Shown here in pieces: positions 7,321 through 48,210 of a stretch of DNA of 64,000 nt (its first letter is position 1; every line of letters starts with the position of its first letter). A program made the translations under genes and the position numbers. The notes beneath the pieces were generated by a model, which searched no databases, was not told the DNA's origin, and saw only the letters and a program-made list of their open reading frames with translations. The stretch lies in IMG/VR virus record IMGVR_UViG_3300020192_000008, positions 1-64,000 of that record. The stretch is one strand, 5' to 3'. This DNA comes from a virus.

Positions 7321-7992
7321 ATGAAAGCTTTCACTGTTACAGAGCAAGCGACGAAGGGGATTCAGATTCCAGTTCTGTTGGGCAACGACAACGCCTTCTT
7401 CGGCATGCGTGTCGGGGGAGGGCTGTTGGGCGACCTGAAGAAGGCACTCGAGGTTGAACTCGAGATGGCCAACAAGGAGGATGAGCTCAAAGAGCTGACT
7501 CAGTACATCGATACTCTAGAGAGCATGCTCGGCGGCAGGGCTGTTGCTCCGATGCTGCTGCAGTCCTTGGACATGAACAAGGACAGGACGCACATCATGC
7601 GAGAGAACTCGGTGGGCAACAGGGACGCGCTCATCCACCTGGTCACAAAGACAGGGGATGGGGGCAAGATCAACCTGTATGCGAACACCGTTGATGAAGT
7701 TGAGGACGCAGATGGAGTGCTGCGCATCCCCCGACCGTTCCCTCCTCCAGGTGTGCAGCTCGTGGGGGAAACGGATACGGATACGGGTAAAGAGTGGCTC
7801 ATCAAGATGAGGCCACGCAGCAGCTTCAAGATCATCAGGTCAGGGGACCTGCAGGGTGCCCCACCCGAGCTTGTGGTGCTGTGGACGGGGAGGTGGCAGA
7901 GCCGTGTCTTCGAGAACTCTCGAAGCTTCCACGACCCGAGTGAATGGGGCCTGCGGGTCTTCCACCGCGACAGGGGGCCTCACCGCAGGTAA
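7321..7992 (+). CDS. hypothetical protein (early cassette)
   Basis: 223 aa, SD AGGAG; its TAA is the exact complement of the TTA ending the convergent gene. Confidence 0.8.
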   Translation: MKAFTVTEQATKGIQIPVLLGNDNAFFGMRVGGGLLGDLKKALEVELEMANKEDELKELTQYIDTLESMLGGRAVAPMLLQSLDMNKDRTHIMRENSVGNRDALIHLVTKTGDGGKINLYANTVDEVEDADGVLRIPRPFPPPGVQLVGETDTDTGKEWLIKMRPRSSFKIIRSGDLQGAPPELVVLWTGRWQSRVFENSRSFHDPSEWGLRVFHRDRGPHRR

Positions 7993-8202
7993 GGGGAGAG
8001 GGGCGTCAAGCCCCTCTTTCTTAGCCGCTATCTTGAGCTTGTAGTAGAGGTACGTCTTGATGATGGCGAACTCGCTGGGGGTGAGCGGCACCTTGTCTAC
8101 GGTGGTGAGGAACCACACCTCGAAGTCTCGGATGTCTTCGTCCACAAAGGCTTCGAGCTTATCTTCCGTAGGTTCACTGAGCTTGACTTCAACACGCTTC
8201 AT
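7990..8202 (-). CDS. hypothetical protein, 70 aa, TTA-terminated
   Basis: In-frame TTA at 7992-7990; extended -10 TGGTAACTT (8209-8217) lies 6 nt upstream. Confidence 0.65.
7996..8026 (+). terminator. hairpin + T-tract + TAGC terminator
   Basis: AGAGGGGC-GTCAA-GCCCCTCT followed by TTCTTAGC. Confidence 0.75.
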
Positions 8203-8232
8203 GCCGCGAAGTTACCACGAAGAAAGAGATCT

Positions 8233-8640
8233 ATGTTTCTGATAACTGACCTTCAGGAAAGCAACCTTGAGGACCTGGCAACCCTCGACGAAGAGGTCTT
8301 CGAGGACTTCTGCCTCCCCATCGGTACGCTGCGCAAGGAGTGGCGGGCAGGGGCTGTGCCCATGGTCGTCGACCTCGATGTAGACAAGCTAGCGGCCTAC
8401 GCTGTGTGCCGGTATGAAGACGGCATCGTCGACATCCTGCGTCTGGGTGTAGGCAAGAGGTACAGGGGGCATGGCCTTGCAAGGGGTCTGCTCGACGACA
8501 TTACCTGGAGGTACCCAGGCAAGCCTCAGATGCTCTGCGTCCGTAAGGAGAACGCCAGAGCACGGGGCATCTACCTCAAGGCAGGCTTTAGAATCGTGAG
8601 CCAGATAGACCTCTCCTGGGTGATGCGTCGCGACTGTTAG
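8233..8640 (+). CDS. GNAT family (RimI-like) N-acetyltransferase
   Basis: Motif A LGVGKRYRGHGLAR and motif B LCVRKENARARGIYLKAGF. Confidence 0.85.
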   Translation: MFLITDLQESNLEDLATLDEEVFEDFCLPIGTLRKEWRAGAVPMVVDLDVDKLAAYAVCRYEDGIVDILRLGVGKRYRGHGLARGLLDDITWRYPGKPQMLCVRKENARARGIYLKAGFRIVSQIDLSWVMRRDC

Positions 8641-8650
8641 ACTCAGCCCC

Positions 8651-9115
8651 ATGGTCCCAGAGAAGGCTTACCAGGCGTTCTTCAAGTTCGCGAAAGAACA
8701 GAAGGAGATCTATCGGCAGGTGGGCAACGTCCTACTTGATCGAGACATCCCCATCATCCCCCGCCTGCCCAGCGACAAGGGCAAGGCCCGAGCTCTGCTC
8801 GAGAACCACATCAGGGCAGCTGAGAGTGAGAACTGGACACACCCCCAGGTAGCCGTTCGCAAGCTCGACCTCAAGGGCATGGGCTTTGAGCCGACGCGAG
8901 CAGCCATCCCCCTGCCTGGGGAGAAATGGTTCACGCCTTCGTACCGTTCAGGGAAGATGCACGCCCACAAGATGGGGCCGTTCTACCTGGTGCATGAGGA
9001 TGAGTCAGCCCCCAAGGGCTTCGCTGACACCGTCTCGCACCTGATCAAAGACACGCCCAAACCCCTGCTGAAACGCATCTTCGAGAAGATCCCCCCGCCC
9101 GTGGTCAACCGGTGA
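8651..9115 (+). CDS. hypothetical protein (K-x-A motif, late-type promoter)
   Basis: AFFKFAKE motif; extended -10 TGTTAGACT 7 nt before ATG. Confidence 0.7.
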   Translation: MVPEKAYQAFFKFAKEQKEIYRQVGNVLLDRDIPIIPRLPSDKGKARALLENHIRAAESENWTHPQVAVRKLDLKGMGFEPTRAAIPLPGEKWFTPSYRSGKMHAHKMGPFYLVHEDESAPKGFADTVSHLIKDTPKPLLKRIFEKIPPPVVNR

Positions 9116-9134
9116 TAAGGAGCCATCATTTCGG

Positions 9135-9149
9135 GGATAAGAAGAGTGA
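9135..9149 (+). promoter_or_regulatory. ATAAG-N5-TG phage promoter-like motif
   Basis: GGATAAGAAGAGTGA. Confidence 0.65.
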
Positions 9150-9808
9150 TGGCAATCATTACCAAGCAGACCGGACTCGAGAAGTTGGCCCATGACATCC
9201 GTGAGGGTGCAGAGCTGAGGGTGTACCGTTCACCCGAGGAGAAGAAGAGGCTCGAGGAGAAGTTGCTGGAGATCTCTCAGGGTAAGCTCTTCGACATCAA
9301 CGAGGGGCTCTGGGTCATGCTGCACGATCTCGTCGCCAAGCACTCGCCCTCGGCAGCGAAGTACCTGAGGAGAGTCAGGCACGTGGATGACCGGCACACG
9401 TACGTCATCGTGATGCGTGGAGATTTCGGTGCGTTGGCTAGAGATGGAGGAGATCAAGACGCCCGCATGTTCATCAGCATGCATCCGGGGCTGCTTGAGG
9501 TGGCTGACGTCGTGGCTGGGAGCGGGCACTACACCGCGATGGTGAACCTCTCGATGGAGGAGGAGCTCGAAGAGCAGGTGGAGTTCCTAGTGTCTGACTT
9601 CGAGGAGCTCTGGCTTCTGCGAGGGCCTGTGTGCCCCAACCAAGATGAGGTCCTCGACACGGACCTGTTCTGGGTAGCGCAGACCTTGGAGCTCGAGCAC
9701 TCCTACTGCGACGTGTGCCGCGAGTGCACGAGAGGCGTGCAGAAGAGGCCGCTGCCATCCAAGGCAGACATGCTCCGCCTGCAGAAGGAAGACAAGAAGC
9801 GGAACTGA
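9149..9808 (+). CDS. hypothetical protein, C-terminal Cys cluster
   Basis: 219 aa, CDVCREC motif, followed by terminator. Confidence 0.75.
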   Translation: MAIITKQTGLEKLAHDIREGAELRVYRSPEEKKRLEEKLLEISQGKLFDINEGLWVMLHDLVAKHSPSAAKYLRRVRHVDDRHTYVIVMRGDFGALARDGGDQDARMFISMHPGLLEVADVVAGSGHYTAMVNLSMEEELEEQVEFLVSDFEELWLLRGPVCPNQDEVLDTDLFWVAQTLELEHSYCDVCRECTRGVQKRPLPSKADMLRLQKEDKKRN

Positions 9809-9812
9809 AGCT

Positions 9813-9847
9813 GAGCCCCCTTGCCGGGGGCTCTCTTCTTTTCTAGC
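9813..9847 (+). terminator. hairpin + T-tract + TAGC terminator
   Basis: GAGCCCCC-TTGCC-GGGGGCTC followed by TCTTCTTTTCTAGC. Confidence 0.8.
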
Positions 9848-9850
9848 TCC

Positions 9851-10279
9851 TCAGTCGCCGAAGTAGATGGGCTCGGGACGAAGGTCCTCGTCACTGACCT
9901 CGCCGGCGGCCAGCTTGAGAGCACGCTCATTGGCATCGAGCTCCTTGAAGGGGGTGTTCTCAAGGCGCCATGCCTTGTACGCCTGCATGAACTCGATGAG
10001 CCCGTGCATGACCCAGAGCTCCCCCTCGAGGGTCTGAAGGTAGCCGTCCACCTGGCCTGAGGGATCTCTCTCGAAGGAGTGAACGTTGTTCACGAAGTCC
10101 CTGGCGAGTAGCCCACGAGTAGCCCTGTTCTGGATGTTCGAGCGCACCTCCAGGAAGAAGATGCTCTCGTGGAAGGCCTGGGTGTTCTGGTCGTGCGTGC
10201 GTGCGAGGAGCTCGTAGTTACGCTCCAGGGTCGCCAGACGCATCTCCGTCGTCGTCGGGGTGTGCGATTCGCTTGACAT
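9851..10279 (-). CDS. hypothetical protein
   Basis: ATG 10279 with SD GAGGAAAG (alternative start 10243); the longer track ORF has an in-frame TTA at 10409 in its spurious 5' extension. Confidence 0.7.
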   Translation of the reverse strand: MSSESHTPTTTEMRLATLERNYELLARTHDQNTQAFHESIFFLEVRSNIQNRATRGLLARDFVNNVHSFERDPSGQVDGYLQTLEGELWVMHGLIEFMQAYKAWRLENTPFKELDANERALKLAAGEVSDEDLRPEPIYFGD

Positions 10280-10520
10280 CTTTCCTCGTGTGGTCGAACT
10301 GAGCGAGCTCAAGGCCGAGTCTTCGGTCTTCTTCTTCAAGGCGGAGGAGCGTTTCTGCGAGGGCATCTTGAGGGATCTCGCTGAGCGCACGCGGGGCTTC
10401 GTCACAGATAAGCTTCTCTTTCGGGTTGCCATCATGCTCGATGTACTTCTCCAACAGGTGCCGCTTGAGAGCGGCAAAGATGGAGCGTTGGTAGGCAAGG
10501 GCGAGGTACTCGGAGTTCAT
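10218..10520 (-). CDS. hypothetical protein
   Basis: ATGA overlap with the upstream gene. Confidence 0.7.
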   Translation of the reverse strand: MNSEYLALAYQRSIFAALKRHLLEKYIEHDGNPKEKLICDEAPRALSEIPQDALAETLLRLEEEDRRLGLELAQFDHTRKDVKRIAHPDDDGDASGDPGA

Positions 10521-11182
10521 GCTGTAAGAAAAGCATAGAACCGTTTGAGAAGGTCCGCCCCCGCTGCAGTGTCTTTGATGATGTTCCGAAGAGGGTAGAC
10601 ATTGGGGATTCGGGCAGCCCGGCTCTTCGCCAGCTTCTCCCCACCCCGGTCGCGCTCCTGCTCGAGGTGAGCGGCATAGCGGATGTCATCGGGAGCGTAC
10701 TTCAGAGAGATGTCCGAGTTCAGCCCCAGCCGGGTGTAGTACATGAACACTAGGCGTGCCCAGTCGTTCATCGAATGCCGGCCAAGAACCTCACCGATGA
10801 CGTCGCCGCCCTGCCACGTGGTCTGGCAAGAAGGGCACACCAGAAAGCCGTAGGCATTCATAGCGAAGGGGATGATCGCCTCGCAGGTGCCCCGCTTGAG
10901 CTGCTTGCTTGGGCAGAAGTACACCTTCGCATCTCCACCACCGTGGAGCATGGAGCCCGACTCCCAGAACGACAGGCACCCAGGGATGGGGTACTTGTTG
11001 GAGCGGGCCTTACCGAAGAAGAGCTCGATGCGGTACTTGGCCCGTTGCTCCTGGGTCAAGATCTTGTCGAGAGCAGCGATGCGCTGCTGCATCCCATGCT
11101 TGTCTTCTTCAGTCAGCTCGGGGGCCGACTCGATGGGGTTGTCTTCCCCGTACTTGATTTCCTGCGCCGATGCTTTTGGCAT
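10517..11182 (-). CDS. putative zinc-ribbon protein
   Basis: FCP..C and CPSC motifs; operonic position. Confidence 0.7.
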   Translation of the reverse strand: MPKASAQEIKYGEDNPIESAPELTEEDKHGMQQRIAALDKILTQEQRAKYRIELFFGKARSNKYPIPGCLSFWESGSMLHGGGDAKVYFCPSKQLKRGTCEAIIPFAMNAYGFLVCPSCQTTWQGGDVIGEVLGRHSMNDWARLVFMYYTRLGLNSDISLKYAPDDIRYAAHLEQERDRGGEKLAKSRAARIPNVYPLRNIIKDTAAGADLLKRFYAFLTA

Positions 11183-11185
11183 GAC

Positions 11186-11629
11186 TTACCTTCCCAGCTT
11201 TCGGGACAAGATCTCCGGCACCCCACCATCACCCATGATGTTGGTTGCCCCCTTGCCGTTCGCGTTGTGTGTTCGTGCGCCGGCGAGAGGGAACTCGCTG
11301 ATCTCCACGCGGTTGGGCTTGGGAGAGTTCATCAGGGACTCGATGATGGAGGCGATCTGGTTGTTCATGGCAGGGGCCTGAAAGATGAGCCTCCAGGCGT
11401 AGATCATCTTGTGGTCTTGGTCACGCAAGAAGTACTTCTTGGAAGCATCAAGCTTCCACTGCATGCGCTCGCTGTCATGCAGAAGCCTCTGCAGAACCAG
11501 GACCCACTGGTTGCTGGCGTTCGGCGGCACCCGGCCCAGGATGCGGATCTGCCCCTCGCTCGCGTTCGTATCGAGCGTCTGGAAGCCCGTCTTCTGCATC
11601 AGCGCGGTCTTGAGTTCAGCAACGCTCAT
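11186..11629 (-). CDS. hypothetical protein
   Basis: TGATG coupling, GC3 bias. Confidence 0.75.
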   Translation of the reverse strand: MSVAELKTALMQKTGFQTLDTNASEGQIRILGRVPPNASNQWVLVLQRLLHDSERMQWKLDASKKYFLRDQDHKMIYAWRLIFQAPAMNNQIASIIESLMNSPKPNRVEISEFPLAGARTHNANGKGATNIMGDGGVPEILSRKLGR

Positions 11630-12114
11630 CAGGCCCTCGACCGCGTGCAGACGATGAAGGCCTTGTTCTTCCCGTAGTAGTGCTCACGTAGCGAGGAGAA
11701 GTAGATCTTGTCCCCTTCCGACTCGAGGAAGCTCTCGCCGTTGGTCAGCACGTCCGTGATGTCCTCAGGCTTGCTCCACGCGATGATGTACTCACCGCTT
11801 GGCGTCATGCCGTAGAACGTCGGGTAGCTGCCCTCCTGGTCTTCGTACTTCAGGTGAATGTCACCATTACGAATCGAGGCGATGTACTGAGGGATGAGGT
11901 CGAGGTCTGTCTCCCTGGTGAGAAGGTAACCCTCCTCCTGGATGGCCTTCTCGATGGCCTGACAGAAGAGCTCCGGCTTGTAGACCTGAAGACCCGCTTC
12001 AGTCTCTTCAGACTCTTCTCGCGGGGGTAGAGGCGCACCCCAGCGAAGCATCTCCTGAAGCACCGACTCTTCGAGAATCCCCGAGCCGATCATGATCTCC
12101 GTGAGCGTCTTCAT
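11629..12114 (-). CDS. hypothetical protein
   Basis: ATGA coupling, GC3 bias. Confidence 0.75.
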   Translation of the reverse strand: MKTLTEIMIGSGILEESVLQEMLRWGAPLPPREESEETEAGLQVYKPELFCQAIEKAIQEEGYLLTRETDLDLIPQYIASIRNGDIHLKYEDQEGSYPTFYGMTPSGEYIIAWSKPEDITDVLTNGESFLESEGDKIYFSSLREHYYGKNKAFIVCTRSRA

Positions 12115-12728
12115 GGCATTACCTTTGCGAAGTCCTTACCAGCGCCAACATCAACCTCAAAGCCACCAACAGGAGGGGCGCTGACCTTCCCCTTCTCCGG
12201 CATCACCGCCTTGTAGGACTTCTGCACATCCACCATCCCAGACCCAGGACCAAACGCCGCGCACAGGAAGAGGGCTGAGTCCTCGAGGATGGCGTCCCTG
12301 TAGAACGGCAGCCCGTAGACCAGGTCCTTGTGGAACTTCACCCCGCACGTATCGCTGTGCCACTCATGGAAGACCGACTTCGTCCCCGACACGAACGCTA
12401 CCGGGTAAAGCCCGTCATCCTGCATGGCCTGGAACATACGGGCCACCACGATAGAGGCGGAGCTCGCATCACCCTCAGGCACCTCGTCGATCTGCCCGTT
12501 ACGCAAGATCGCTGAGGGGGTGAGCGTCTTCATCTCGACGTCCACGTGCCGGCCGTCTTCCCCCGGCCGGACGTACCTCTTGTAAGAGAGCTGACCGCGG
12601 GAGTCGATGTTCAGGTTCATCAGCCGAGGAAGAACAAGAAGCTTCCGCAGCAGGACCATGAAGCCATCTACCCCAAGGTGCTTGGGCACCTGGATAGTCT
12701 CCTCGAACAGCTCTAGCTCTTGGTTCAT
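12111..12728 (-). CDS. hypothetical protein
   Basis: ATGA coupling, GC3 bias. Confidence 0.75.
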   Translation of the reverse strand: MNQELELFEETIQVPKHLGVDGFMVLLRKLLVLPRLMNLNIDSRGQLSYKRYVRPGEDGRHVDVEMKTLTPSAILRNGQIDEVPEGDASSASIVVARMFQAMQDDGLYPVAFVSGTKSVFHEWHSDTCGVKFHKDLVYGLPFYRDAILEDSALFLCAAFGPGSGMVDVQKSYKAVMPEKGKVSAPPVGGFEVDVGAGKDFAKVMP

Positions 12729-12910
12729 GCCTGCTCCACTCCTAGCTCTTCATCTGTCTTGGGCCGGGTCTCATCCTCTTTCCGTACGAGCTCGATGAAG
12801 AACATCTCAGCAAGCTTCGTGACGGTAAGGTTTCTGCTCTGAGCAATCTCAGTCACCCTCTTCTTGAGGTTTCGATCTACGCGCAGATGGATGCGTTCGT
12901 CCTTGGACAT
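12725..12910 (-). CDS. ribbon-helix-helix (CopG/Arc-like) DNA-binding protein
   Basis: RIHLRVD beta-strand followed by two helices (LKKRVTEIAQSRNLTVTKLAEMFF); 61 aa. Confidence 0.7.
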   Translation of the reverse strand: MSKDERIHLRVDRNLKKRVTEIAQSRNLTVTKLAEMFFIELVRKEDETRPKTDEELGVEQA

Positions 12911-13164
12911 AACAGCTCGAGATACTTGAGAGCGTCGATCTGCTCCCTCAGACCTTTGATCTTCGGGAACCTCTCCTCGAGGTAGTCGACGACGATGTCG
13001 TGGGCCTGCTGAAGACCCTCCTCGTTGATTGGCAGACCCTCGATCTTGGCTGCGAGCTGACCCTCCATCTCCTTCTTCAAGATCGTATTGATACCGATCC
13101 AGGTGGGGAGATGAAGCCAGTTGAGCTCGAGCGTACCGATGTCAGTCGGGACTACGGCGTGCAC
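12910..13164 (-). CDS. hypothetical protein, TTA-terminated
   Basis: In-frame TTA overlaps the next ATG (TTATG). Confidence 0.65.
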
Positions 13165-13819
13165 GGATCTTCTCTTTCGCCTGGTTCACCAGGTCCTTGA
13201 GGATGGCCTTCCCCTCTTCATGCAGAGACTGAAGGAAGAGAGAGGCGCGGTGCTTCACGAAGCTGACCCTCTGCTCGATGGTCGGTTCAGGCTCTGGAGC
13301 AGGAGGGGGCGGAGGTGGCATGACCTTGCCCATGAGCGCATCAAGCAGTTCTTGCTCGAGGCTAGAGAGGCTGTCTACGTGGTTGTCTCGCATGTACCTA
13401 TCGAACTCCCTCTGCAGCTCTCGCCTCACTTCAGGGGCACGCCGGTTGGAGCGGATGCCCGAGAGAGGGAACTCGACAACCTCATGCATGGGGTCATCCA
13501 TGTGGTCATCGAGGGGGATCTTCCATCCCTCAGGAGCCGTCAGGCAGTAGAGCGGGACCTTGCGCTCGGGCTTGGTGAACCTCTTGGGGCCGAACTTGCG
13601 CTCCTTGAGGATGCGCAGAGACTCGAGCACCACGTTCTCGACCTCGTGCTGGTCATCGAAGTTCAGAAGCAGTTGCCTGGCAGCGGCATCGAACTTCGTG
13701 AACTTCTCTTCGGTGGTGAGCTCAGGGGGGAGGGTAGTACCAGCAGCGGCGTCTTCATGCTCGAGGCGTTCTTTGAACGGCCTTGGCTTGGCTGTCTTAG
13801 AAGTAGGGAGCCTACCCAT
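13142..13819 (-). CDS. hypothetical protein with Pro-rich linker
   Basis: Its ATG overlaps the TTA ending GroES. Confidence 0.75.
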   Translation of the reverse strand: MGRLPTSKTAKPRPFKERLEHEDAAAGTTLPPELTTEEKFTKFDAAARQLLLNFDDQHEVENVVLESLRILKERKFGPKRFTKPERKVPLYCLTAPEGWKIPLDDHMDDPMHEVVEFPLSGIRSNRRAPEVRRELQREFDRYMRDNHVDSLSSLEQELLDALMGKVMPPPPPPAPEPEPTIEQRVSFVKHRASLFLQSLHEEGKAILKDLVNQAKEKIRARRSPD

Positions 13820-14130
13820 AAGACGTCCACCCGCACATCACCATCGTAGGCAAAGAGAATGTCGGCCACGCGGATGGTGGCGACGTCCTTGCCGTGCTCA
13901 TCGCTGAGCTCACGGATGGCCTTGATGGTCTGCTTGCCGGGGCGGTGCTCCTCGTGCCAGCGGATGTAGGCCACCTTCTCGCCGACCTTGAGGTCCTTGA
14001 CCTTGGGGCCGACGGCGATGACAACGCCCTTGCGAACGTTCGTCTCGTTGATGACGAACTCGATGATGGAGCTCTTCTGATCGAACTGCTCCACCTCTAC
14101 GAGAATCCAGTCGTGCAGGGGGCGGATCAT
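13819..14130 (-). CDS. groES: co-chaperonin GroES (103 aa when TTA is read as stop)
   Basis: MIRPLHDWILVE, GVVIAVGP, LKVGEKV and DILF motifs; the domain ends right at TTATG. Confidence 0.85.
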
Positions 14131-14131
14131 C

Positions 14132-14458
14132 TCAGACCTCCACGTCGTCCTTCGAGGGGACGGCAGGGCCAGCAGCGCCGGCGCCCTTGCGAGCCTTGAG
14201 CTCGTTGACGATGGAGTCGCTCATCTCCTGGCGGAAGGGCTTGAGGGCGCTCGTCCACTGCTCAGCGTTGGGGGCGAGCCATGCCTTGCCGCCGCAGACC
14301 ACGATGACAGCGGTGTGCTTGCGACCCGACTCATCCCCCCACTCGACGAGCGCGTGCTCGACGGAGGTGATGTTCGTGATGGTGTTGACCGGCGCCTGCT
14401 CGGTCGACTGGTTCTCGGGGATGCGGACGCCTTGGTGACGGATGCCGTTGTTATCCAT
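14132..14458 (-). CDS. hypothetical protein
   Basis: GC3 bias, operonic position. Confidence 0.75.
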   Translation of the reverse strand: MDNNGIRHQGVRIPENQSTEQAPVNTITNITSVEHALVEWGDESGRKHTAVIVVCGGKAWLAPNAEQWTSALKPFRQEMSDSIVNELKARKGAGAAGPAVPSKDDVEV

Positions 14459-21148: not shown

Positions 21149-21454
21149 TCAGACTCCTCGCTGCTCCAGGACTTCTCGTACAACATCACGCGCGTATTCA
21201 CAGGCCTTCTTCTGAACCGACCATGCAGCGGGGCTCAGGGAGAACGATGAACCAAACACAACGGCTCTGGAGAAGTACTTCTCGTACGTCTTCTCCCTGC
21301 CATCGCTGTAGATCCACTTCATCTTCACGGTGAACTCACCACCCTCACCGGGCGTAATCAAGATCTCCGTGGGGTGCAACGACCTTTTCCAGTAGGTGAC
21401 CCACTGTAGTAGTTGCGCTTTCAGCCCTTGCAGAAGAACAGCTCCTCGGTCCAT
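21149..21454 (-). CDS. hypothetical protein
   Basis: 101-aa ORF, operonic position. Confidence 0.65.
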   Translation of the reverse strand: MDRGAVLLQGLKAQLLQWVTYWKRSLHPTEILITPGEGGEFTVKMKWIYSDGREKTYEKYFSRAVVFGSSFSLSPAAWSVQKKACEYARDVVREVLEQRGV

Positions 21455-21463
21455 CCTCTGATC

Positions 21464-21916
21464 GTGTCAGAGAAATCGATAATAGACCCTGAGAAGGCGA
21501 TCTGGGCGGAGCTCATCATCAAGGGGCAGATGGCTGCCGAAAGGGTACGGGAGATCTGGGCCAAGGAGCGGACCGTGGGGAACATGGTCATGTCCTGGGT
21601 GAGGGAGGTCATCTACGACCGCCAAGGCAAGCCCATCAACGACACGGTGGTTCTCGAGCTGCCGACAGGGGCCGTCTCGAAGAACATCCTTGCCCGCTTC
21701 GTGGCCAAGACCAAGGCGTTCGCCTTCCTCGTGGTGGAGCGGCGAGACAAGGAGGTCAGGCTCACCCTCGAGTCAGAGCACGGTTGCGTCATCTGGGTCA
21801 TGCCCATCGAACGCCACGGTGACATCTGGGTTCTCGGCAACGAGAAGGCAAAAAGAAACCCCACTGCCGGGGGGGAGGCAGTGGGGCTTCTCTGGAGACC
21901 GTCGCAGGCAAACTAA
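21464..21916 (+). CDS. hypothetical protein
   Basis: GC3 bias; start uncertain; its TAA is complementary to the TTA of the convergent gene. Confidence 0.65.
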   Translation: MSEKSIIDPEKAIWAELIIKGQMAAERVREIWAKERTVGNMVMSWVREVIYDRQGKPINDTVVLELPTGAVSKNILARFVAKTKAFAFLVVERRDKEVRLTLESEHGCVIWVMPIERHGDIWVLGNEKAKRNPTAGGEAVGLLWRPSQAN

Positions 21917-22537
21917 CGCCTGGGGCTGGCTCTCGTTGAAGAGCTGCTCGGCGCTCTTGAGACCGTTGGCCAGGGGCTTGTCCGTGGCGATGTGGGTCTT
22001 GGCGTCCTGGTTGACGATGCGCTTGAAGATGCCGATGGCGCCGGCGATCGTGGTCGCGGCATCCTGCAGGTCTTCAGAGACATCGACGCCGTTGTTGAGC
22101 GCCTGGATGGTGTTGAGCGCCTGGACGCCCTGCGAGACCGAGTTGATCGTGCGCTCGGCCATCTCAATGTCCGTGTACTCGCTCGAGGCGCTGAGCAGGG
22201 CAGCCTTGCGGCCCCCCTTGCCCTTCGGCTTGGCGGCAGGCGCCTTGGCCTTGGGAGCGGGCGTGGCCTTGACGGGCTTCTCCGCCTTCTCCTTCTTGGC
22301 CGTGGTCGTCTTGACCGTGGCCTTGGTGGCCTTGGCAGGCTTCGATGCGGCCATCTTCATCGGCGTGGCGGCCTTGGACGAACCGAAGTGTTTGTCGATC
22401 ACCCCGCGAGCATCGTTCTTGTCCTGGTCGGTAAGCGTCGACGCCTTGCCGACAGCACGGCGGGCGCCCGTGGCGTCCTTGTACTTGCCAGCCTTGAGTG
22501 CGGTCTTGAACGAGTCGAGTGAGAGCTTGTCGTACAT
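21914..22537 (-). CDS. histone H1-like Lys/Ala-rich DNA-binding protein, TTA-terminated (207 aa)
   Basis: KPAKATKA/KAKAPAAKPK tract; in-frame TTA at 21916-21914. Confidence 0.7.
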
Positions 22538-24429: not shown

Positions 24430-24708
24430 ATGCACGCCTTCCTCATCATCCTGTTTCTGCTGGTAGTGAGCTGTCAGCCAGCAGAACGACGTCCTGTCGG
24501 ACCTGTCTACGAGCCCGTTGATACGGCTGCTTGCCATGATGCTGAAGCAAACCTGAAGAAGCTCAACTGCCGGGAGGCAACGCTCCCCAGTGGCAAACCC
24601 TTCAACCAGTTCTGCTTCGAGAAGATGGTGGCAGGCATCCCGCTCGCCCCTCGTTGTCTCTCGAAGATCACCTCGTGCGATCAGGTGGAGTCAGTATGCA
24701 ACCCGTGA
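24430..24708 (+). CDS. Cys-rich lipoprotein
   Basis: Hydrophobic signal ending LLVVS-C, plus six further Cys. Confidence 0.75.
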   Translation: MHAFLIILFLLVVSCQPAERRPVGPVYEPVDTAACHDAEANLKKLNCREATLPSGKPFNQFCFEKMVAGIPLAPRCLSKITSCDQVESVCNP

Positions 24709-25535
24709 AGCTTGCTTGGCATCCAGACCCTCGGATTGATGATGATGGCAAGATCATCATCGACCCTGACTTCTCGTCCCTCAGTGCAGACCTGATGACC
24801 AACGAGGTTCGCTTCAAGCTGGCGACATCTCCGAGGGTGATGCTCGAAGAGGAGACGCCCGTCAGTGATCAGGGAGGCATCGGGTCGTGCGTGGCCAACG
24901 CTACGTGTGATGCCCTGGAGATCTTGCTTGGGCTTGAGAAGGCCAAAGTTGTGCAGCTCTCTCGCCTGTTCCTCTACTGGAACGCGAGGAACTACAACAG
25001 CGACACGCTCAACGACAACGGGACATACATTCGCTTCGCCTTCCAGGCCATCAAGGAGCACGGGGTCTGCTCTGAGAGTGAGTGGCCGTACTCGGATGGC
25101 AACGATCGCAAGGGCGTCGCCTGGTACAAGAAGCGTCCGTCCCTGCGTTGCTACGAGAACTCCGACAGCAACAAGATCACCGAGGCCTACCGCATTGATG
25201 AGTCGGGGCACAAGCGGCTCAACGCCATCGACATCGCTCTGCATGCCGGTCACCCCGTGGTCTTCGGCACTCCCGTGGGCAAGCAGCTGCAGGCCTACCG
25301 CGGCGAAGAGATGGACCTGACACCCCCTTCGAGCTCCATCGGTGGCCACTGCATGGTCATCGTCGGGATGGAGAACCTGCCTGATGGGCGCCGGCGTTAC
25401 CGCATCCGCAACAGCTGGGGTACCAGCTGGGGTCAGAGCGGTCGGTGCTGGTTCGACGAGAGCTACATCGCCTGGGACCAGACAAACGATCTCTGGGTAC
25501 CGACCCGAGTGCAGTCTGTCATCGTCCACGACTGA
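24696..25535 (+). CDS. papain-family (C1A) cysteine peptidase
   Basis: DQGGIGSCVANA, GGHCMVIVG and IRNSWG motifs. Confidence 0.92.
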   Translation: MQPVKLAWHPDPRIDDDGKIIIDPDFSSLSADLMTNEVRFKLATSPRVMLEEETPVSDQGGIGSCVANATCDALEILLGLEKAKVVQLSRLFLYWNARNYNSDTLNDNGTYIRFAFQAIKEHGVCSESEWPYSDGNDRKGVAWYKKRPSLRCYENSDSNKITEAYRIDESGHKRLNAIDIALHAGHPVVFGTPVGKQLQAYRGEEMDLTPPSSSIGGHCMVIVGMENLPDGRRRYRIRNSWGTSWGQSGRCWFDESYIAWDQTNDLWVPTRVQSVIVHD

Positions 25536-25572: not shown

Positions 25573-26280
25573 TAAGCCGTCGGTCTCGGTCGAGGCGTCG
25601 TACTCGTAGTAGAGCGCATAGTCCTTGGCACCATCGAGGGCTGACGCCGGCGAGTAGCTGCCGTTGGGCGGGCTGGTCGCCGCACTGACGAAGGTACCCG
25701 TGGTGACGACCGCGCCGACGGCGATCTCCTTGATGGGCGCGGAAAGACCGGCGCGGGGCTTGAGCTTCTTCCCCAGACCGAGGACTGAACCATAGCCGAT
25801 GGCCACGGTAGCAGCAGTACCCTCAGCTGCCGCGAAGACAACCGAAGTCACGGTCTTGAAGGCCTTCACGCCCTCCGAGATGGTAGCCGTCTGCGCGACC
25901 GTGATGGTCTCGGTCTGGGCATTGCCATTGACATCCGTGCCCGTAACGAGCGCACTCGCCGGGGCGTCAGCCGGGGTCACACCAGCTGTGGTGAGCGTGA
26001 CATTGCGAGGGAAGGCAGCGAGAGCCGTCACGCCGCCGGCGAGGAACGAGCTCACCGTCAGAGGGGCAACTGTGGTCGCAGCAGCAACCTCGAGGCCAGC
26101 AGCTGCAGCGGCACCCGGGCCCGTGAACTCCTCGACCACGACGGCCGCAAGAGGCGTGAGCGACTTGAGGATGTCGGCGCGCAGGTTGTGAATGGCACCG
26201 GACAGACCCGGGCCGGGTTTGATGAGGTGGACGAACTTCTCGACCATCGTGCTGAACAGACCTGAACCAATAGATGACAT
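25573..26280 (-). CDS. putative virion structural/decoration protein (235 aa), TTA-terminated
   Basis: Thr/Ala/Val-rich (PRNVTLT, VTGTDVNGNAQTETI); own ATG at 26280; in-frame TTA four codons before TAG. Confidence 0.7.
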
Positions 26281-26316: not shown

Positions 26317-27507
26317 TAACTGGGGCTGTCCGAACTCGTTGATGCCCCTGGCTGGGCCTACTGCCCCGTTGCCATAGATCGGGCTCTCGTCGGCCTCTTG
26401 CCCCATGACCCCGAGGCCCTTCTTCAGAGCCCGGTACCCGCCGTAAACACCCAGCCCACCAGCAACCATAGCAGGCAGCTTCCCCTTCCACTTGCCGTCT
26501 GCGAGACCTGTTCCTTGCCAAGCCTTCTCAGCTTTGGCAAGCATATCTTCTTCAGGAACTGCCGCTGCTTCTTGGGCCCCTGCCTGATGTTGAGCTGCTG
26601 GCTGAGCGGCAGGCTGGGGGGCCGGTGGTTGAACCTGCCCTGCCTGTTGAGGGGCAACAGACGGCTGTGCCTGAGGAGGATGTACCGTGCCTGCCGGAGC
26701 TTGAGCTGGTGCTGCCTGCTGCTGAGCAGGGGGCTGAACAGTCGCTGCAGGAGAAGCCGCCGGAGCAGGTGCTCCTTGAGCCGGAGCTGCTTGAGGAGCT
26801 GCCTGCTGGGGGGCATGGGCAGGTTCTGCCTGAGGGGGGTGAACCGTACCTGCTGCTTGGGGTGCTGGCTGAGACTGCGGAGCAGCTGGCTCCCTGTAAG
26901 GGGACGCGTTCTTAGGGGGATGAACAACCGCAGGTGCGGGCTTGGGAATGGGGGCCTGACCCATGCCCGCACGCTCGATGTTCGTACCAGCGCGATCGAC
27001 AGACTGGTTGACTCCAGAGGCTGCGTTGTTCAGATGACCTGTTACCGCATCGGTCTTCTGCTCAACGTAGTTCTTGGCAGCATCAACCTTCTGACCAGCG
27101 TAGTTCTTGGCAGCATCAACTTTGCCCGACATGAAGGCCTTGGCTTCATCGGTCTTGCGACTGAGAAGACCTGCGCCACTCTGACCTGCGGCAGTCGCCT
27201 TGATCTTGATGGTGGTGGGAAGAGCTGCCGCGCCACGACCCACACTACCGAGAAGCCTTCCAGGAGCAGAAAGAACAGCGCCGCCCAACCCCTTCGCTGC
27301 CGCACCCATCTGCTTGAACGTCGCGGCATCCTTCTCCATGTAGAAGATGTCTGCGCCGATCTGCTCAGCAAGCTTCACAGCCAGGTCTTCCTGAGGAGCA
27401 AGGATGAGATCGGCCACCTGTACAGAGATAGGTCTAGCATCAGCCAGCTTCTCTCGGAGAAGGTTGCCGGTGCCGTAGGCATCACTGAGCGAGAGAGTCG
27501 GGTTCAT
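26317..27507 (-). CDS. putative virion internal protein (396 aa, Pro/Gln/Ala-rich), TTA-terminated
   Basis: K-x-A motifs, KVDAAKNY repeats; in-frame TTA at 26319-26317 followed by a 36-nt intergenic-like spacer. Confidence 0.7.
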
Positions 27508-37696: not shown

Positions 37697-37699
37697 CGA

Positions 37700-38686: not shown

Positions 38687-38687
38687 G

Positions 38688-39397: not shown

Positions 39398-39412
39398 GAG
39401 TTTTGTCTCCTG

Positions 39413-39453
39413 AAAGCCAAAGGGCGCCGGCACCACCCGGCACCGGCGCCCTT
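39413..39453 (-). terminator. hairpin after the major capsid gene
   Basis: AAGGGCGCCGG...CCGGCGCCCTT stem. Confidence 0.7.
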
Positions 39454-39481
39454 CGTCCTGGCTAGGACCAGCCTACCAGAC

Positions 39482-40603: not shown

Positions 40604-40636
40604 ATTAGTTCTCCTTGTCCTTCTTCTTCTGGCAGC

Positions 40637-41194
40637 TCAGGTCGTGCCGTTACGGACGGCCCAACCCTGCATGAAACGCAGCTGACCGCTCGAGGGCAGC
40701 TTGGTGACGTATCCGACGACCGGGCCGTTGCTCGCGTAGCTCGAGCCGACGAGGCCCGAGAACTTGCGCGTGCCGCCCTCGGCCAGAGCGAGCGTGATGG
40801 TGCACACGCGCAGCGGCTGGAACAGCGTGGTGATGGCAGCGCCACCAGCCGCGCTCGACGCATCGTAGATGCGGGTGTTCCACTCGTACTGACCGAGCAT
40901 CAGCACGGGAACCTTCTTCTCGGCCGACGCCTGGATGTCGTACCGACCACGCTCAGCCCACAGGGGCATCGCGATGACAGTGGCCAGGGCGTCAGCAACG
41001 GTGACGTCGGTGGCGCGCTTGGCCTTGCCCTGCGAAGTACCCGGAGTCGAGTCGAGTGTGAGCCATTCGCCGTCGACAAGGCAAAGGGCGTTCATGGGGT
41101 TGACCAGCGTCGCATCAGCGAGCATCCAGTCACGACGGTGAGCCAGGTTGACGTCAGTCACAGGCTCGAAGTTGACCCTCTGGACAGTGGACAT
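40637..41194 (-). CDS. putative head decoration/cement protein
   Basis: Immediately upstream of the capsid gene; PVVGYVTK; SD AGGAG. Confidence 0.6.
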   Translation of the reverse strand: MSTVQRVNFEPVTDVNLAHRRDWMLADATLVNPMNALCLVDGEWLTLDSTPGTSQGKAKRATDVTVADALATVIAMPLWAERGRYDIQASAEKKVPVLMLGQYEWNTRIYDASSAAGGAAITTLFQPLRVCTITLALAEGGTRKFSGLVGSSYASNGPVVGYVTKLPSSGQLRFMQGWAVRNGTT

Positions 41195-41232
41195 AGTATC
41201 TCTCCTGTTGAACTAGGCTTGGCTTCGAGCCG

Positions 41233-41604
41233 TAAGCCGATGGTTCCGTGAAGGAACCGAATGAAGTCGGACGCCCCTTCGGGCGCCTGCGTGTCGTTGT
41301 TACCGCCGACCAGATGGCCGATCTTCTCGCCCATGTTCGGGCCCACGAGATCAACCGCCGCAGCGATCTTCTCGAGCTTGCCCTCCTCGGCCGCCTTCTC
41401 CATCTGGGCGACTAGGCTCTCGTAGGGGACATCCGACTGGATGCCCTTCTCGTGCATCGCCGAAGCGACCTTCTCGGCCTCTTCGTGACGCATGCGGGCC
41501 TGGGCTTCCTTCTTCCAGAAGTCCCTTTCCCCGGCGAGTTGGGTGATCGCGGAAGCGCTCTTGGTGAGGAGGTCCTGGACCTGCGCGCTGCTCAGCTTGT
41601 TCAT
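41233..41604 (-). CDS. putative scaffold-related protein (123 aa), TTA-terminated
   Basis: ATG 41604 after GGGGAG; in-frame TTA at 41235-41233, upstream of the next gene's SD. Confidence 0.65.
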
Positions 41605-41606
41605 GT

Positions 41607-43064: not shown

Positions 43065-43148
43065 TATTGATTCCTCTGAAGAAGTAGAGCGACGGTGGGG
43101 GGAGGTGGAGGAAGGGGCCGGGCTTTCACCCGGCCCCCTCCTGGTCGA

Positions 43149-44003
43149 TCACTCGTTCCAGGTGACCGGGTAGCCGGCAGCCTCGAGCAGCTCGATCGAG
43201 CGGACATCAACCGCCGACTCGAGGTCGGGAGCCGAAGCCACCTTCACGCTGTCGCTCTCCGAGACGCCGAGGGTCAGCACCGAGAAGACACGCTGAGCGG
43301 CCTCGTCGGCATCCCAACCAGCCGACGCGGCCTTCTCGACCGCCAGCTCACTGGCCAGATCGTCGAGAGCCGAGCCCTCTTTGACCTTGTCGTGAACCTT
43401 CTTCGCGCCGTAGGCCGCACCGCCAGCAGCTGCTGCACCAGCGGCGTGAATAGCTGCACCAACCGCCTTGGACTTGCCCTCACTCGCTTTCCAGCCGGCC
43501 TTGTGGGACGTGCGGTCGGCTGCGTTCATCGCACGGCGACCAGTGGCCTCCATGTGCGTGGAGACCCCCTCGCTGACCCTCTTGCCGATGTGGCTGAGAG
43601 GCGCCTTGAGGCGATCGATGAACTTCGATCCGTCTGCTGGGGCCTTGCCGGCGATCTTGGTGAGCTCCTGGACGTAGGCATGAGCCATCACGCGACCGAG
43701 GTAGTCGGCTTCGGCAACCTTCGCCATGGCCTCCTTCTTCTCCTCGTGCTCTTCCTTCGCCTTCTCGACCTTCTCCTCTTTCTCCTCTTTCTCGCCCTCG
43801 TCCTCGGCGAGCTTGTTCATGTTCTCGACCCACTGGCCGTAGATGCCACGAACCTGGGCATCGGGCATCGAGTTGAGGTCGAGGCCATTGGCCTCTGCCG
43901 TCTTGACGAAGAGGTCGACGGAAGCGTCCTTCTCGAAGGCTTCCTGCTGGGCGCTGGAGTTGCCGGTTCCGTAGTGGGCGGCGAGGAGTTCGTTCATGCT
44001 CAT
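43149..44003 (-). CDS. putative scaffolding protein
   Basis: Glu/Lys-rich helical protein with many K-x-A motifs, downstream of the protease. Confidence 0.6.
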   Translation of the reverse strand: MSMNELLAAHYGTGNSSAQQEAFEKDASVDLFVKTAEANGLDLNSMPDAQVRGIYGQWVENMNKLAEDEGEKEEKEEKVEKAKEEHEEKKEAMAKVAEADYLGRVMAHAYVQELTKIAGKAPADGSKFIDRLKAPLSHIGKRVSEGVSTHMEATGRRAMNAADRTSHKAGWKASEGKSKAVGAAIHAAGAAAAGGAAYGAKKVHDKVKEGSALDDLASELAVEKAASAGWDADEAAQRVFSVLTLGVSESDSVKVASAPDLESAVDVRSIELLEAAGYPVTWNE

Positions 44004-44093
44004 GGTGGTGTCCCTTGGTTCTTGATCAGTTGAGGATTACGCGCTGCGTGTTCCTCGAGGGGGAACCCCTCTCCACGCCGGCTTTCGCCCGAG

Positions 44094-45743
44094 TTACAGA
44101 AGGCCCCCGTAGATGTCAGCGCCCAACTCGTCCCAGAAAGCGTCCCGCAGATAGTGGACCGTGAGGGGAGTGAAGAGCTGATCAACTGGTGCCGACGCCA
44201 GCTTACTGAACTCACTACCCCTTGGGGCAGATGCGTTCAGAAGTCCTTGTGCGCCGCTCACCAGATCCATGAGAGTTGTTCGGTACCCGTTGTAGGCAGC
44301 TCCTATCTTACGCAGCACTTCTGAGGGATGGGAAGAAGAGGCCCTCTTCTCACCCCCGTCGCTCTTCTTCATCACAAGTACACGATGCTCAATCGCAGGC
44401 GCGAGAGCAGAGCGTGATTCCATGAGAGGGAGAAGAAGTCTTGCAAGTGAAGGAAGGAAGGAAGCGTGGCCGAGAGACATACTCTCAGTATCTTTCGATC
44501 TGGGGAAGACGATGTTCCGACGATCAAAGTCGTCAGCCATGTCTCTCCGTCCGATCTGAATCAAGACGATACGCTGAAACTCCCTGGGACGAAGAACGAT
44601 GCCCAAACCACCAGAAGTAGACAGGGAGCTGGGCAGGTCATGTTTCCCGAGTGCATCAAGCACATCATCAGGCAAATCTTCTTCTTCTCTCGACAGAGTG
44701 GCCACCGCCTTGCCAGCGAACTGGCTCGGCACAATGTCCTTGATGATCTCACTCTTCTTGAGCTTCGCGTCCTTGTATTGGAACGCTTCCTTGAAGATTG
44801 ACTCGTTGAGAGAAGCCGTCTTTTCCCCAACGGTCATCTCGTCGTAGCCGAGCTTCTCCGCCTCATAGGCAGAAGAGCCGAACGAATAGACGCGCCCCTC
44901 AGACGCGATCTTCATCATCGTCTTGGCTGTCTTGTCAGCCCCGATGAAGACGAAAGAGATGTCGAAGAACTTCGGGAAGTCGTTGTAGACGTACACCTTC
45001 CGGCCATCGGCCAGAATCTTGTTCATCTGATTGCGAGCGTGCTCGCAATAGTCCTTCCGAGTGATCGACACGCCCCGGATAGGGGTCTTCTTATGGATGG
45101 CGAGGATGGCCTGGCCCGGAGACGCGTGCTTCTTCGGGTCGAAGGTGGCAGCCGCCTCGTGGTACCGCTTCCAATCGAGGCAGATGGAGCACGTATCGAA
45201 GGGCACCTTGCAGCCCATCGAGACATCCGGAAACATGCCCTGGCTGAGCTTGTCCCAGACCTGCGTGCCCCCGTACTCCTGGCACTTGAGCTTATCGACC
45301 CGAGTAACGAGCTCGACGCGCTTGAGCCTCGGGTGCCAGACAGCCAGCTCCACCTCACCGAAGGCGCGGCCTGCGTCCTTGTTGCGATGGTGGGCGTAGG
45401 GGTGGGCTGAATAGAAGGTCGGGTAGCCGTACGCCCAATCCTTCGCCTTGATCTTGTCGAGCAAAGGGTTGCCCGTCCAATCATCAGGGCGATGGATCAG
45501 GGCAGCTTCTGGGAAGTGATCGCCGTTGACATTGGAGCCGAAGAACTCTCCGGCCCCCATGGCATTGACGAGGTTGTACGCTGCATCATTCCGGGGCCTG
45601 AGCGACTCGATATACTTGACGACGTCAGGAAGAAGTGTGGCTGATGCGGTCTTCTCGAAGTACGCATCAGACGCTTTGTTGAAGAGCGGGATGACCGTTG
45701 GGCCAGTCTCGCTCTCACCCCAGTATGTGCAGAGCTTGTACAT
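44094..45743 (-). CDS. prohead (capsid maturation) protease
   Basis: NVNGDHF, YAHH, DVSMGC and FFDISFV motifs typical of assemblin/HK97-type head proteases; position upstream of the capsid gene. Confidence 0.75.
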   Translation of the reverse strand: MYKLCTYWGESETGPTVIPLFNKASDAYFEKTASATLLPDVVKYIESLRPRNDAAYNLVNAMGAGEFFGSNVNGDHFPEAALIHRPDDWTGNPLLDKIKAKDWAYGYPTFYSAHPYAHHRNKDAGRAFGEVELAVWHPRLKRVELVTRVDKLKCQEYGGTQVWDKLSQGMFPDVSMGCKVPFDTCSICLDWKRYHEAAATFDPKKHASPGQAILAIHKKTPIRGVSITRKDYCEHARNQMNKILADGRKVYVYNDFPKFFDISFVFIGADKTAKTMMKIASEGRVYSFGSSAYEAEKLGYDEMTVGEKTASLNESIFKEAFQYKDAKLKKSEIIKDIVPSQFAGKAVATLSREEEDLPDDVLDALGKHDLPSSLSTSGGLGIVLRPREFQRIVLIQIGRRDMADDFDRRNIVFPRSKDTESMSLGHASFLPSLARLLLPLMESRSALAPAIEHRVLVMKKSDGGEKRASSSHPSEVLRKIGAAYNGYRTTLMDLVSGAQGLLNASAPRGSEFSKLASAPVDQLFTPLTVHYLRDAFWDELGADIYGGLL

Positions 45744-46282
45744 AAGGGGCCCTGACCGCCCTTGTTGTTGCGGCGCTGGTAGGGCTTGGCGACGACCTTG
45801 GGCTTGAGCGACTCGGCGAACGAGTTACCTGCGTGCTCACCACCCCTACGCCACGAATCAGCCATGGGGGACTTGAACTTGTCGGAGGCCGACAGGCTCT
45901 CGGTGAGGATGCCACCGGCTGACATGGGGTTGTCGGCCATGCGGCGCAGATAGGTCCCGGCGACGATCGGGTCCTTGGCGAAGTTCGGATTCATGTTCCG
46001 AAGCGACGAGTACATCTGGTTGAACATCTTCGGGTCGCGCTCGTGATGCTCATGCAGGTCCGGGTTCAGTTCCAAGATCTGCTTGAAGTCGTGCGACTTG
46101 GTGGCCGCATCGTAGATCTTGCCAGCGGCCATGCCGGCGCCGGCGAAGGCAACTCCGGCAGCAGCCATCCCAAGACCCTGCGTCATCGCATGGCCGAAGC
46201 CCTTGGCAGCTTCACCACCGAAGGCGACCTTCTCCTGGGGCTCGCCGTACTGGGCGTAGAAGTCATCGAGGGGGTTAGACAT
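45743..46282 (-). CDS. hypothetical virion protein (179 aa), TTA-terminated
   Basis: EKVAF motif; in-frame TTA overlaps the protease ATG (TTATG). Confidence 0.7.
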
Positions 46283-47478
46283 CAGCCGCCTCCGCTCTGG
46301 AGCATCTGCTCGAGGTAGTTGTGCTCTTGCGTCCCAGGGATGGCGGCCAGCGTTTGGTACTTCGCCTTCTGGAACGTGGGGTCGTACTTGAGGTTCCGGC
46401 GGTAGGCCTCGTGGGCCAAGACAGCGGGGGCAGCGACAGCGCCGACTTGGGCTGCAGTGCCGAAGCCCTGGCCTTTGCCCTTACCCATGAGCACTTCACC
46501 GACAGCCCTGCCCCCCTTGCCCGCGTACTCGACGCCCTTCTTGGCAGCGTTGACGCCCTTCATGAGCAGGCCTTCACTGGCTGCTCGCTTCACGAAGGAG
46601 GTGAGCACGTCGAGGTTGTCCTTGACGTAGTCGCGCTCTGTTCGGAGGGAGGCCACCTTGGTCAGCACTTCGCAGTAGTCCTGGAAGTCTTTGATCAGAG
46701 GGTGCTCGGGGTTGGGGTTACCAACCGAGGCCGTCTTCTCGATCGACTCGACCATGTCTACCTGCGAGCGGAAGACACCGTTCTCCATCAGCTCCGGGAG
46801 GACCTGACGGAAGGCGACCTTCACGTACTCACCCGTAGGCGCGAAGTTCTCCCAGATCTGAGCGACCTCGCCGAGGCTGTGACCAGAGAGGGCAGCCTGC
46901 TTGACGTTGTAGAAGTTCCTCGTTCGGAGGTCGTCGTACATCGTCTCGAGGCCGGAGATATGAGCGGTCAGGCTCTCGTAGGAGGAGGCGAGCTTGTCGC
47001 GCAGGGCAATAGCATCACCGAGGGGGTTCTCGTCTGGCAGGGCACTGGCCTCCTTGCCGAACATGTCCTCGAGCTCTCGCTCATGAAAACGCGATGCCTT
47101 CTTCTCCTTGGCAGGAGGGGGCTGGCTGTAGTCGCTCGAGCCACGGCTGAAGTGGGCAACGCCGGCGCTCTTGTTGAGCTCCTGCAGAACGTACCCAGGG
47201 CTCGCCGGCTCCTGGCCGCCGAAGTCCACGACCTTGTGGCCAGCCTCGCCGGCTTTGGAGAACTCGGTGAGGTAGGCGTCCGTGTTGGCGAACTCAACAA
47301 CACGCTTGATCTGTTCGGCCGACAGACTCGCTGTCTTCACGGTCTGTACGACCGCCTCGTTGAGAGTGGAGTATCGCCCCTCGGACCAGCGCGCAGCCGC
47401 GTGCTTGCCCAGAACCTGGAGCTGCTCGCCGTCCATTCGGCGAGCCTTCATCTGCTGCAGCAAACCGTGGTCTGACAT
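46282..47478 (-). CDS. putative head-associated protein
   Basis: K-x-A motifs; QIKRVVEFAN; TGATG coupling. Confidence 0.7.
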   Translation of the reverse strand: MSDHGLLQQMKARRMDGEQLQVLGKHAAARWSEGRYSTLNEAVVQTVKTASLSAEQIKRVVEFANTDAYLTEFSKAGEAGHKVVDFGGQEPASPGYVLQELNKSAGVAHFSRGSSDYSQPPPAKEKKASRFHERELEDMFGKEASALPDENPLGDAIALRDKLASSYESLTAHISGLETMYDDLRTRNFYNVKQAALSGHSLGEVAQIWENFAPTGEYVKVAFRQVLPELMENGVFRSQVDMVESIEKTASVGNPNPEHPLIKDFQDYCEVLTKVASLRTERDYVKDNLDVLTSFVKRAASEGLLMKGVNAAKKGVEYAGKGGRAVGEVLMGKGKGQGFGTAAQVGAVAAPAVLAHEAYRRNLKYDPTFQKAKYQTLAAIPGTQEHNYLEQMLQSGGG

Positions 47479-47514
47479 TCACTGCTCCTTCAAGAATCCG
47501 TTACAAGAAGTACC

Positions 47515-48210
47515 ATGGATAAAAAACTCATGGGAAGCTGGCCCCGGCTGGTCTCCGTGCTGGAAGCAGCCGAGATGCTTTCGGTTTCTGTCGATCAAGT
47601 CCATCGCTGGAACCGGGATGGTCTACTAGAGGCTGAGTACCCAGAGGGAAGAAGAGGGGGGAAGTACTTCCAGACGGAAGACATCCAGACCCTCATAGAA
47701 GCTCGGGCCAGCAAGACGCTCTCTGACCATGATGTGAAGATTCTAGCCCTTCAGTCTCTGGTCTCCTCCAAGAGGGCAGAACGAAAACTCGATGAGCTGC
47801 TTGGGATGCTCGGTGTTTCGGACGTGAAGCTCGGTACCTCGAGGGAGGAGGTCTTGGCTTTCTTCGTCGAGGTAGAGGACGAGATCAAGGAGGGTGAGCC
47901 GCTCCTACCCGAGGAGGCGATCGGCTGGGCCAAGCGGATGCTGGGCATCACCGAGGAGTACCTGGAGCTAGTGAAGGAGCACACGTTCATGCTCGAGCCC
48001 TGGGTCCCGTACATGCAGCTCTCCAAGAAGCTGCACGACAAGTTCCCAGCAGGGCAGGCAGGGGCCTACCTCTCTCACGCCATCCGTAATCTTCGGCACA
48101 CGGCGTACTTCTACGTGCGTCGGGCGGATGGGGTGAGAGAGGCGACGAAGCGCTTTCCCGAGGGTGGCGTGACGAGCCAGCTCCTCGGGATCATGTTTCC
48201 GAAGAGCTAA
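47515..48210 (+). CDS. MerR/Xis-type helix-turn-helix DNA-binding protein
   Basis: VSVLEAAEMLSVSVDQVHRWNRDGLL...KYFQTEDI. Confidence 0.75.
   Translation: MDKKLMGSWPRLVSVLEAAEMLSVSVDQVHRWNRDGLLEAEYPEGRRGGKYFQTEDIQTLIEARASKTLSDHDVKILALQSLVSSKRAERKLDELLGMLGVSDVKLGTSREEVLAFFVEVEDEIKEGEPLLPEEAIGWAKRMLGITEEYLELVKEHTFMLEPWVPYMQLSKKLHDKFPAGQAGAYLSHAIRNLRHTAYFYVRRADGVREATKRFPEGGVTSQLLGIMFPKS

Follow-up and report, generated by a model that had tools for sequence, protein, structure and literature searches.

Can a single base triplet end the genes that converge on it from opposite strands? The question is raised by a stretch of phage DNA of 64,000 nucleotides (nt), referred to here as the window, which is the first 64 kilobases (kb) of one linear IMG/VR record of 107,272 base pairs (bp), IMGVR_UViG_3300020192_000008. 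At positions 7990–7992, 21914–21916 and 48208–48210, the same three base pairs are the TAA stop codon of a plus-strand gene and an in-frame TTA of the minus-strand gene facing it. A preliminary description of the window had drawn attention to these triplets, and all of its coordinates were correct when re-read. It had also stated that under the standard code the minus-strand open reading frames (ORFs) overrun by 50, 47 and 80 codons antisense into their neighbours, numbers that we reproduced from the ORFs, and that a 3-bp stop shared by both strands is impossible with standard stops, which is true by logic as the reverse complements of the standard stops are not themselves standard stops. TAA reads as TTA on the opposite strand, so that two convergent genes in one codon phase can end on a single triplet, but the full stop-on-stop overlap seen here is possible only if TAA and TTA both terminate. 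We consider it quite probable that UUA ends translation in this phage and that TTA thereby joins TGA, TAA and TAG as a fourth stop codon.

The record has a G+C content (GC) of about 60% and is 58% complete according to CheckV. Its terminase places the phage with uncultured phages of roughly 177–190 kb, whose distant cultured relatives grow on Salmonella and Vibrio. A relative of 188,971 bp that uses the standard code and is rated 100% complete (G004) served as the control genome.

The plus-strand ORFs closed by the shared TAAs span 7321–7992, 21413–21916 and 47515–48210, and the standard-code ORFs on the minus strand, at 7840–8202, 21773–22537 and 47968–51108, carry the TTA at codons 71, 208 and 967, respectively. 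When the frequency of such triplets was compared with chance, as the preliminary description had proposed, it turned out to be higher: three of the ten convergent junctions in the phage contig share a triplet, against none of 16 in G004. Furthermore, TAA ends only 14 of 113 genes called with the standard code, yet it ends all three plus-strand partners, which has a chance of ~0.002 even if a shared codon phase is granted.

The third junction joins the large terminase gene to a helix-turn-helix (HTH) gene. The terminase (48208–51021, minus strand), an intein-containing protein with Pfam matches to GpA_ATPase, LAGLIDADG_3 and Terminase_6C, would have 937 amino acids and end in ..TNQG immediately before TTA. 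Its plus-strand partner (47515–48210) encodes a MerR/excisionase-like HTH protein of 231 residues, ending in TAA, which matches HTH_17 and MerR in Pfam, as well as PHROGs, and has a weak small-terminase match; in 11 relatives its homologs end with canonical stops at about query residues 230–235. More than 100 terminase homologs among the matches listed cover the query only up to TTA. In an alignment of 16 terminases, ..QG is followed by a stop exactly at the TTA codon in 14, and in the IMG/VR relatives the stop likewise lies at the codon aligned with TTA. The intein occupies approximately residues 396–734 of the terminase (window 48211–51021, minus strand; LAGLIDADG_3), and terminase homologs that lack it have about 612 amino acids; another intein is found in the family A DNA polymerase (L026:16631–19024, plus strand; Hint/Intein_splicing).

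At the second junction, the plus-strand gene (21428–21916) encodes 162 amino acids, or 167 from the first start of the ORF 21413–21916, and ends in ..QAN before TAA; its homolog in G004 ends in ..QAN followed by TAG at the aligned position. The minus-strand gene (21914–22537) would encode a Lys/Ala-rich protein of 207 amino acids ending in ..SQPQA before TTA. All 10 of its homologs end between 3 residues before and 7 residues after this TTA, and all of them lack the tail of 47 residues.

The minus-strand gene of the first junction (7990–8202) would encode 70 amino acids if TTA ends it and 120 under the standard code. Its 35 homologs are all 57–96 residues long and match residues 1 to ~70, none of them matches the tail, and the stop of the G004 homolog maps 5 residues beyond TTA. 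The plus-strand partner (7321–7992, 223 amino acids, ending in TAA) has a GC pattern typical of coding DNA (0.61/0.40/0.74 at the three codon positions); we found no Pfam or PHROG match for it, no relatives in IMG/VR and no homolog in G004. As these alignments demonstrate, conserved protein ends coincide with TTA. The interpretation of TTA as a stop that the preliminary description had offered is thus supported by homologs of all three minus-strand genes, which end at TTA or within a few residues of it, and a search among homologs for conserved antisense tails, which would have spoken for the standard code, found none except in two terminases, P0007 and P0024.

The tails of P0007 and P0024, the only tailed terminases, both open with Leu where the other terminases have their stop, and they look similar to an antisense reading of the HTH gene's C-terminus. 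Most simply, they would represent the same shared-triplet arrangement, and the Leu may be encoded by TTA. IMG/VR scans queried with these two proteins returned only standard-code relatives, which end in GGC TAG.

The junctions of the relatives give an idea of what the shared triplets correspond to. Between the terminase and HTH genes of L001, L004, L005 and L009 the sequence is GGC TAG, where CTAG contains TAG on each strand, and in L006 it is GGT TAG, which gives TAG and TAA on the two strands. The second junction has a CTAG with overlapping stops in G004, and a TTAG with overlapping stops is present at one other convergent junction of that genome. Judging from these homologous places, the 4-bp CTAG/TTAG stop overlaps of standard-code relatives correspond to the shared triplet of the TTA code, which is the full-overlap form of a conserved arrangement of stop upon stop. 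The same gene pairs are involved (terminase/HTH in L001, L004, L005, L006 and L009, and the second pair in G004), and they meet head-on without a spacer, but in the relatives one stop is shifted by 1 nt against the other and 2 bp are common to both, whereas here the two stops coincide completely. In L007 (10685–10693), also a standard-code relative, the terminase ends in ..EQGL followed by TAG, with an extra Leu codon (CTT) before the stop.

As no spacer separates the convergent genes, transcription signals lie inside the last codons of the partner. At the first junction, a strong hairpin (7992–8022, plus strand; −29.6 kcal/mol, z −5.6) directly follows the plus-strand TAA, within the last 10 codons of the minus-strand gene. 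A terminator-like hairpin with a U-tract (21852–21893, minus strand; −38.9 kcal/mol, z −5.9) is found 24–64 nt past the TTA of the second junction, and it ends ~75 nt ahead of the next canonical stop of the minus-strand ORF at 21773. At the third, a hairpin followed by a U-rich run (48223–48253, plus strand) lies 3′ of the plus-strand TAA inside the last codons of the terminase gene, and the fold of 48200–48275 has an energy of −34.8 kcal/mol (z −3.1).

The behaviour of TTA in the rest of the genome agrees with that at the three junctions. If TTA is added to the stops, it closes 18 of 115 genes; the overlaps longer than 30 nt are then reduced from 12 to 3, and the overlapping sequence from a total of 1,917 nt to 428 nt. 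The whole genome contains 204 TTA and 184 TAA triplets, compared to ~860 expected from base composition. Over the 32,431 codons of the gene bodies, TTA is never found in frame (frame 0), compared to 61 times in each of frames 1 and 2; the rare codons CTA, ATA and AGA occur in frame inside genes 70, 46 and 52 times. Under the standard code, the in-frame TTAs of ORFs with a coding signature are all located in 3′ tails or in 5′ extensions that precede the likely start. Those that are in frame with the genes all lie at gene ends, and they do so in packaging genes, replication genes and genes of no known family. At six junctions TTA overlaps the next start codon as TTATG, with a geometry similar to that of TAATG/TGATG coupling.

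We also evaluated a codon-usage score across the 40 codons 3′ of each in-frame site. The score collapsed after 16 of 16 TTA, 8 of 8 TAG and 34 of 37 TGA sites, whereas other sense codons gave values of 14–62% each. CTA and TCA, the reverse complements of other stops, were rejected as stops because both behave as sense codons in this test. For AGA, the coding signal was lost after 13 of 21 sites, well above other rare sense codons.

In G004, TTA is an ordinary sense codon that is present 24 times in 9,603 interior codons, and the score collapsed after only 4 of 15 sites; other relatives of similar GC contain mid-gene TTA at ~0.8 per 1,000 codons. A TTA stop would therefore be a derived trait of this phage that its group does not share. 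In 11 of 13 informative genes, the canonical stop of G004 is found no more than 5 residues from the TTA of this phage.

A different cause for the same gene ends could be a hungry codon: the host may lack or limit the tRNA-Leu that reads UUA (cf. bldA of Streptomyces), so that ribosomes stall at UUA and either drop off with the peptidyl-tRNA or slip by +1 to a nearby stop. No release factor would then read UUA, and the ending might be conditional. In Streptomyces adpA and phage Hau3, drop-off and release by frameshifting have been considered as outcomes at UUA (PMC10732093), and the contig of the present phage carries no tRNA. Furthermore, a shift to the +1 frame meets TAG directly at the 7 of 18 terminal sites that read TTAG, and a stop within 3 codons at 3 further sites; these ten include all the shared triplets. 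The remaining 8, which include the site in the helicase gene, are followed by no +1 stop for 9–94 codons, and slippage consequently cannot be the general rule. A programmed +1 frameshift at every site, although it fits at the three shared triplets, was rejected for the same reason. The six TTATG overlaps resemble ordinary coupling of termination and reinitiation, and stalling would probably be a costly way to end one gene in six, terminase and replication genes included. We therefore regard a hungry codon as unlikely. A regulatory UUA of the bldA type was also rejected, as the TTAs are found at gene ends and not within the coding frames of a small number of regulatory genes.

It is even less probable that the standard code applies and that the antisense tails of 50, 47 and 80 residues are real, with the TAA/TTA coincidence arising from in-phase overlap. 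The in-phase antisense frame of genes that are GC-rich at third codon positions is naturally open, shadow ORFs are common in this phage, and the terminases P0007 and P0024 are tailed as well. However, the tails are missing from the homologs of all three minus-strand genes (more than 100 at the third junction, 10 at the second and 35 at the first), and the coding score collapses after every TTA. All 18 genes would need to have lost a conserved stop and to have TTA in the same spot, and at the second junction the terminator would precede the canonical stop.

We give hardly any credence to the third explanation, which is that 1-bp errors of sequencing or assembly created the triplets. It draws on a sister protein of 73 amino acids, P0135, which is found on 2 contigs of up to 42,305 bp and is equal to the minus-strand protein of the first junction except that it ends in ..PLPYLR. 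Deletion of 1 bp in the first triplet reproduces P0135 exactly, turning the stop of the plus-strand gene into TAG and letting the minus-strand gene end in ..YLR followed by TGA, and the removal of one T gives TAG at the second and third junctions too. However, the deletion at the second junction would ruin the stop of the plus-strand gene, which is conserved in G004, and no stop results from a deletion at TTATG and TTAC sites. Moreover, the run-on terminase and the minus-strand protein of the second junction are each recorded on 2 contigs, and the presence of one codon at all 18 sites is not an error pattern. An error in the middle base (TTA read for TAA or TGA) was rejected because it would destroy the stop of the plus-strand gene at the shared triplets, and site-specific base modification, U-to-A RNA editing and stop completion by polyadenylation were rejected for having no known basis and for being incompatible with TTATG junctions in operons.

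Several observations weigh against termination at UUA nevertheless. The case for it consists of sequence analysis and comparison. TTA is expected to be rare from codon usage anyway, at ~2–17 per 12,000 codons, which makes its absence from gene interiors weak by itself, and the argument rests on position instead of depletion. Slippage by +1 from the three shared triplets would lead to a stop within 3, 0 and 0 codons. The first junction can also close on canonical stops, since P0135 is equivalent to the triplet minus 1 bp; P0135 is either a sister variant with canonical stops or a hint of read-level doubt about this triplet. An exact 27-mer search for its contig in metagenome and viral collections, which may omit near-identical records, gave no match. 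Lastly, no release factor, tRNA or transfer-messenger RNA was found on the phage contig, which is 58% complete, and four near-complete relatives contain no release factor; G004 has neither a release-factor gene nor a tRNA.

Termination at UUA, given the lack of such genes on the contig and of release factors in the relatives, would presumably be supplied by the host machinery. The most likely means would be a release factor with a widened specificity combined with the loss of the UUA-reading tRNA-Leu, as has been proposed for organelles, where the replacement of Ser in the codon-reading motif of RF2 has been connected with termination at UUA (PMC12574857). A strict-pattern scan of 185,579 genomes for RF2 with Ala or Gly in this position (Ala/Gly-PFD) gave only Pseudomonas sp. 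286 and a pseudogene, and no credible host. Pseudomonas sp. 286 (60% GC) was rejected because TTA is a sense codon there, present 27 times in 18,452 interior codons. Its full-length RF2 (L030:932–970, UTBG01000116.1) has GPFD in place of the conserved SPFD, a difference that may be genuine or due to an error in sequencing.

On balance we lean towards the view that a bacterial host lineage, together with unrelated phages that infect it, uses a code with four stops (TGA, TAA, TAG and TTA). Such a code alone would allow one triplet to stop both strands, and the phage would make use of this where three pairs of its genes converge, terminator hairpins being accommodated in the last codons of the partner.

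A UUA stop has a precedent in the mitochondria of labyrinthuleans (Thraustochytrium), whose code is NCBI translation table 23. Phage recoding is also known: crAss-like and Lak phages read TAG or TGA as an amino acid, and the suppressor tRNAs or release factors involved are often carried by the phage itself. As in those phages, the genes of the present phage are miscalled with table 11, but the direction of the change is the opposite, from sense to stop, and no such tRNA or release-factor genes were seen. UUA has been reassigned to stop in peDinoflagellate plastids as well, which were called the first such case outside mitochondria (PMC12574857). In a full-text search of the literature, we found UUA-to-stop reassignment only in mitochondria and plastids, and no phage or bacterial case. 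The organelles and this phage would be alike in that UUA is used alongside the standard stops; they differ in that the phage is a double-stranded DNA phage of 60% GC translated by a bacterial host, and in that the strict scan described above gave no release factor with a changed Ser in RF2 from a credible host. The terminase gene of phage Hau3 has UUA sites, and UUA inside reading frames was proposed to trigger bypassing (PMC10732093). In both systems UUA is special, nearly unused and touches a phage terminase gene, but in Streptomyces and Hau3 it lies inside reading frames, whereas here it is confined to gene ends.

If UUA indeed terminates translation in this phage, the finding would be a sense-to-stop code change in a bacterial translation system, a type of change published so far for mitochondria and plastids only, and it would suggest that the phage infects a so far unrecognised host lineage whose release factor or set of tRNAs is altered. 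Gene callers that use table 11 would produce run-on proteins for ~16% of the genes of this phage, and databases would already hold a terminase with a false tail of 80 residues (P0004). In-phase convergent genes that meet on TAA/TTA would provide a compact and easily searched signature of a TTA-stop code.

Other predicted TTA gene ends of the window, all on the minus strand, follow the same pattern. The TTA at 12910–12912 overlaps the next start as TTATG, and the stop of G004 is 3 residues past it; TTATG overlaps are also present at 13819–13821 and, with the next gene, at 45743–45745. The TTA at 25573–25575 belongs to a convergent junction with a gap of 37 nt, and both here and at 26317–26319 the G004 stop is 2 residues past TTA. 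At 41233–41235, the stop is exactly at the aligned codon in 6 of 7 relatives. A conserved protein of 725 amino acids encoded upstream of the terminase ends in TTA-GCC-TTA (52445–52453), where two TTAs one codon apart resemble tandem stops. All 90 homologs of this protein, which ends at 52451, stop at ..LAFQxx, and the stops of the relatives are at most 4 residues to either side, with an offset of 0 in the closest ones. An apparent homology of its tail to relatives was rejected, since the match was out of frame, echoing the downstream gene, and the subject sequence contained stops.

Two terminal TTAs elsewhere in the record are also associated with hairpins. A terminator-like hairpin lies between the TTA at 88322 and the next canonical stop, and for the TTA at 80553 the canonical stop sits inside the hairpin. 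The base that follows the terminal TTA at the 18 gene ends is G, T or C, 6 times each, and never A. The phage also encodes a cysteine protease of the papain family (window 24654–25535, plus strand; Peptidase_C1, E 7e-18).

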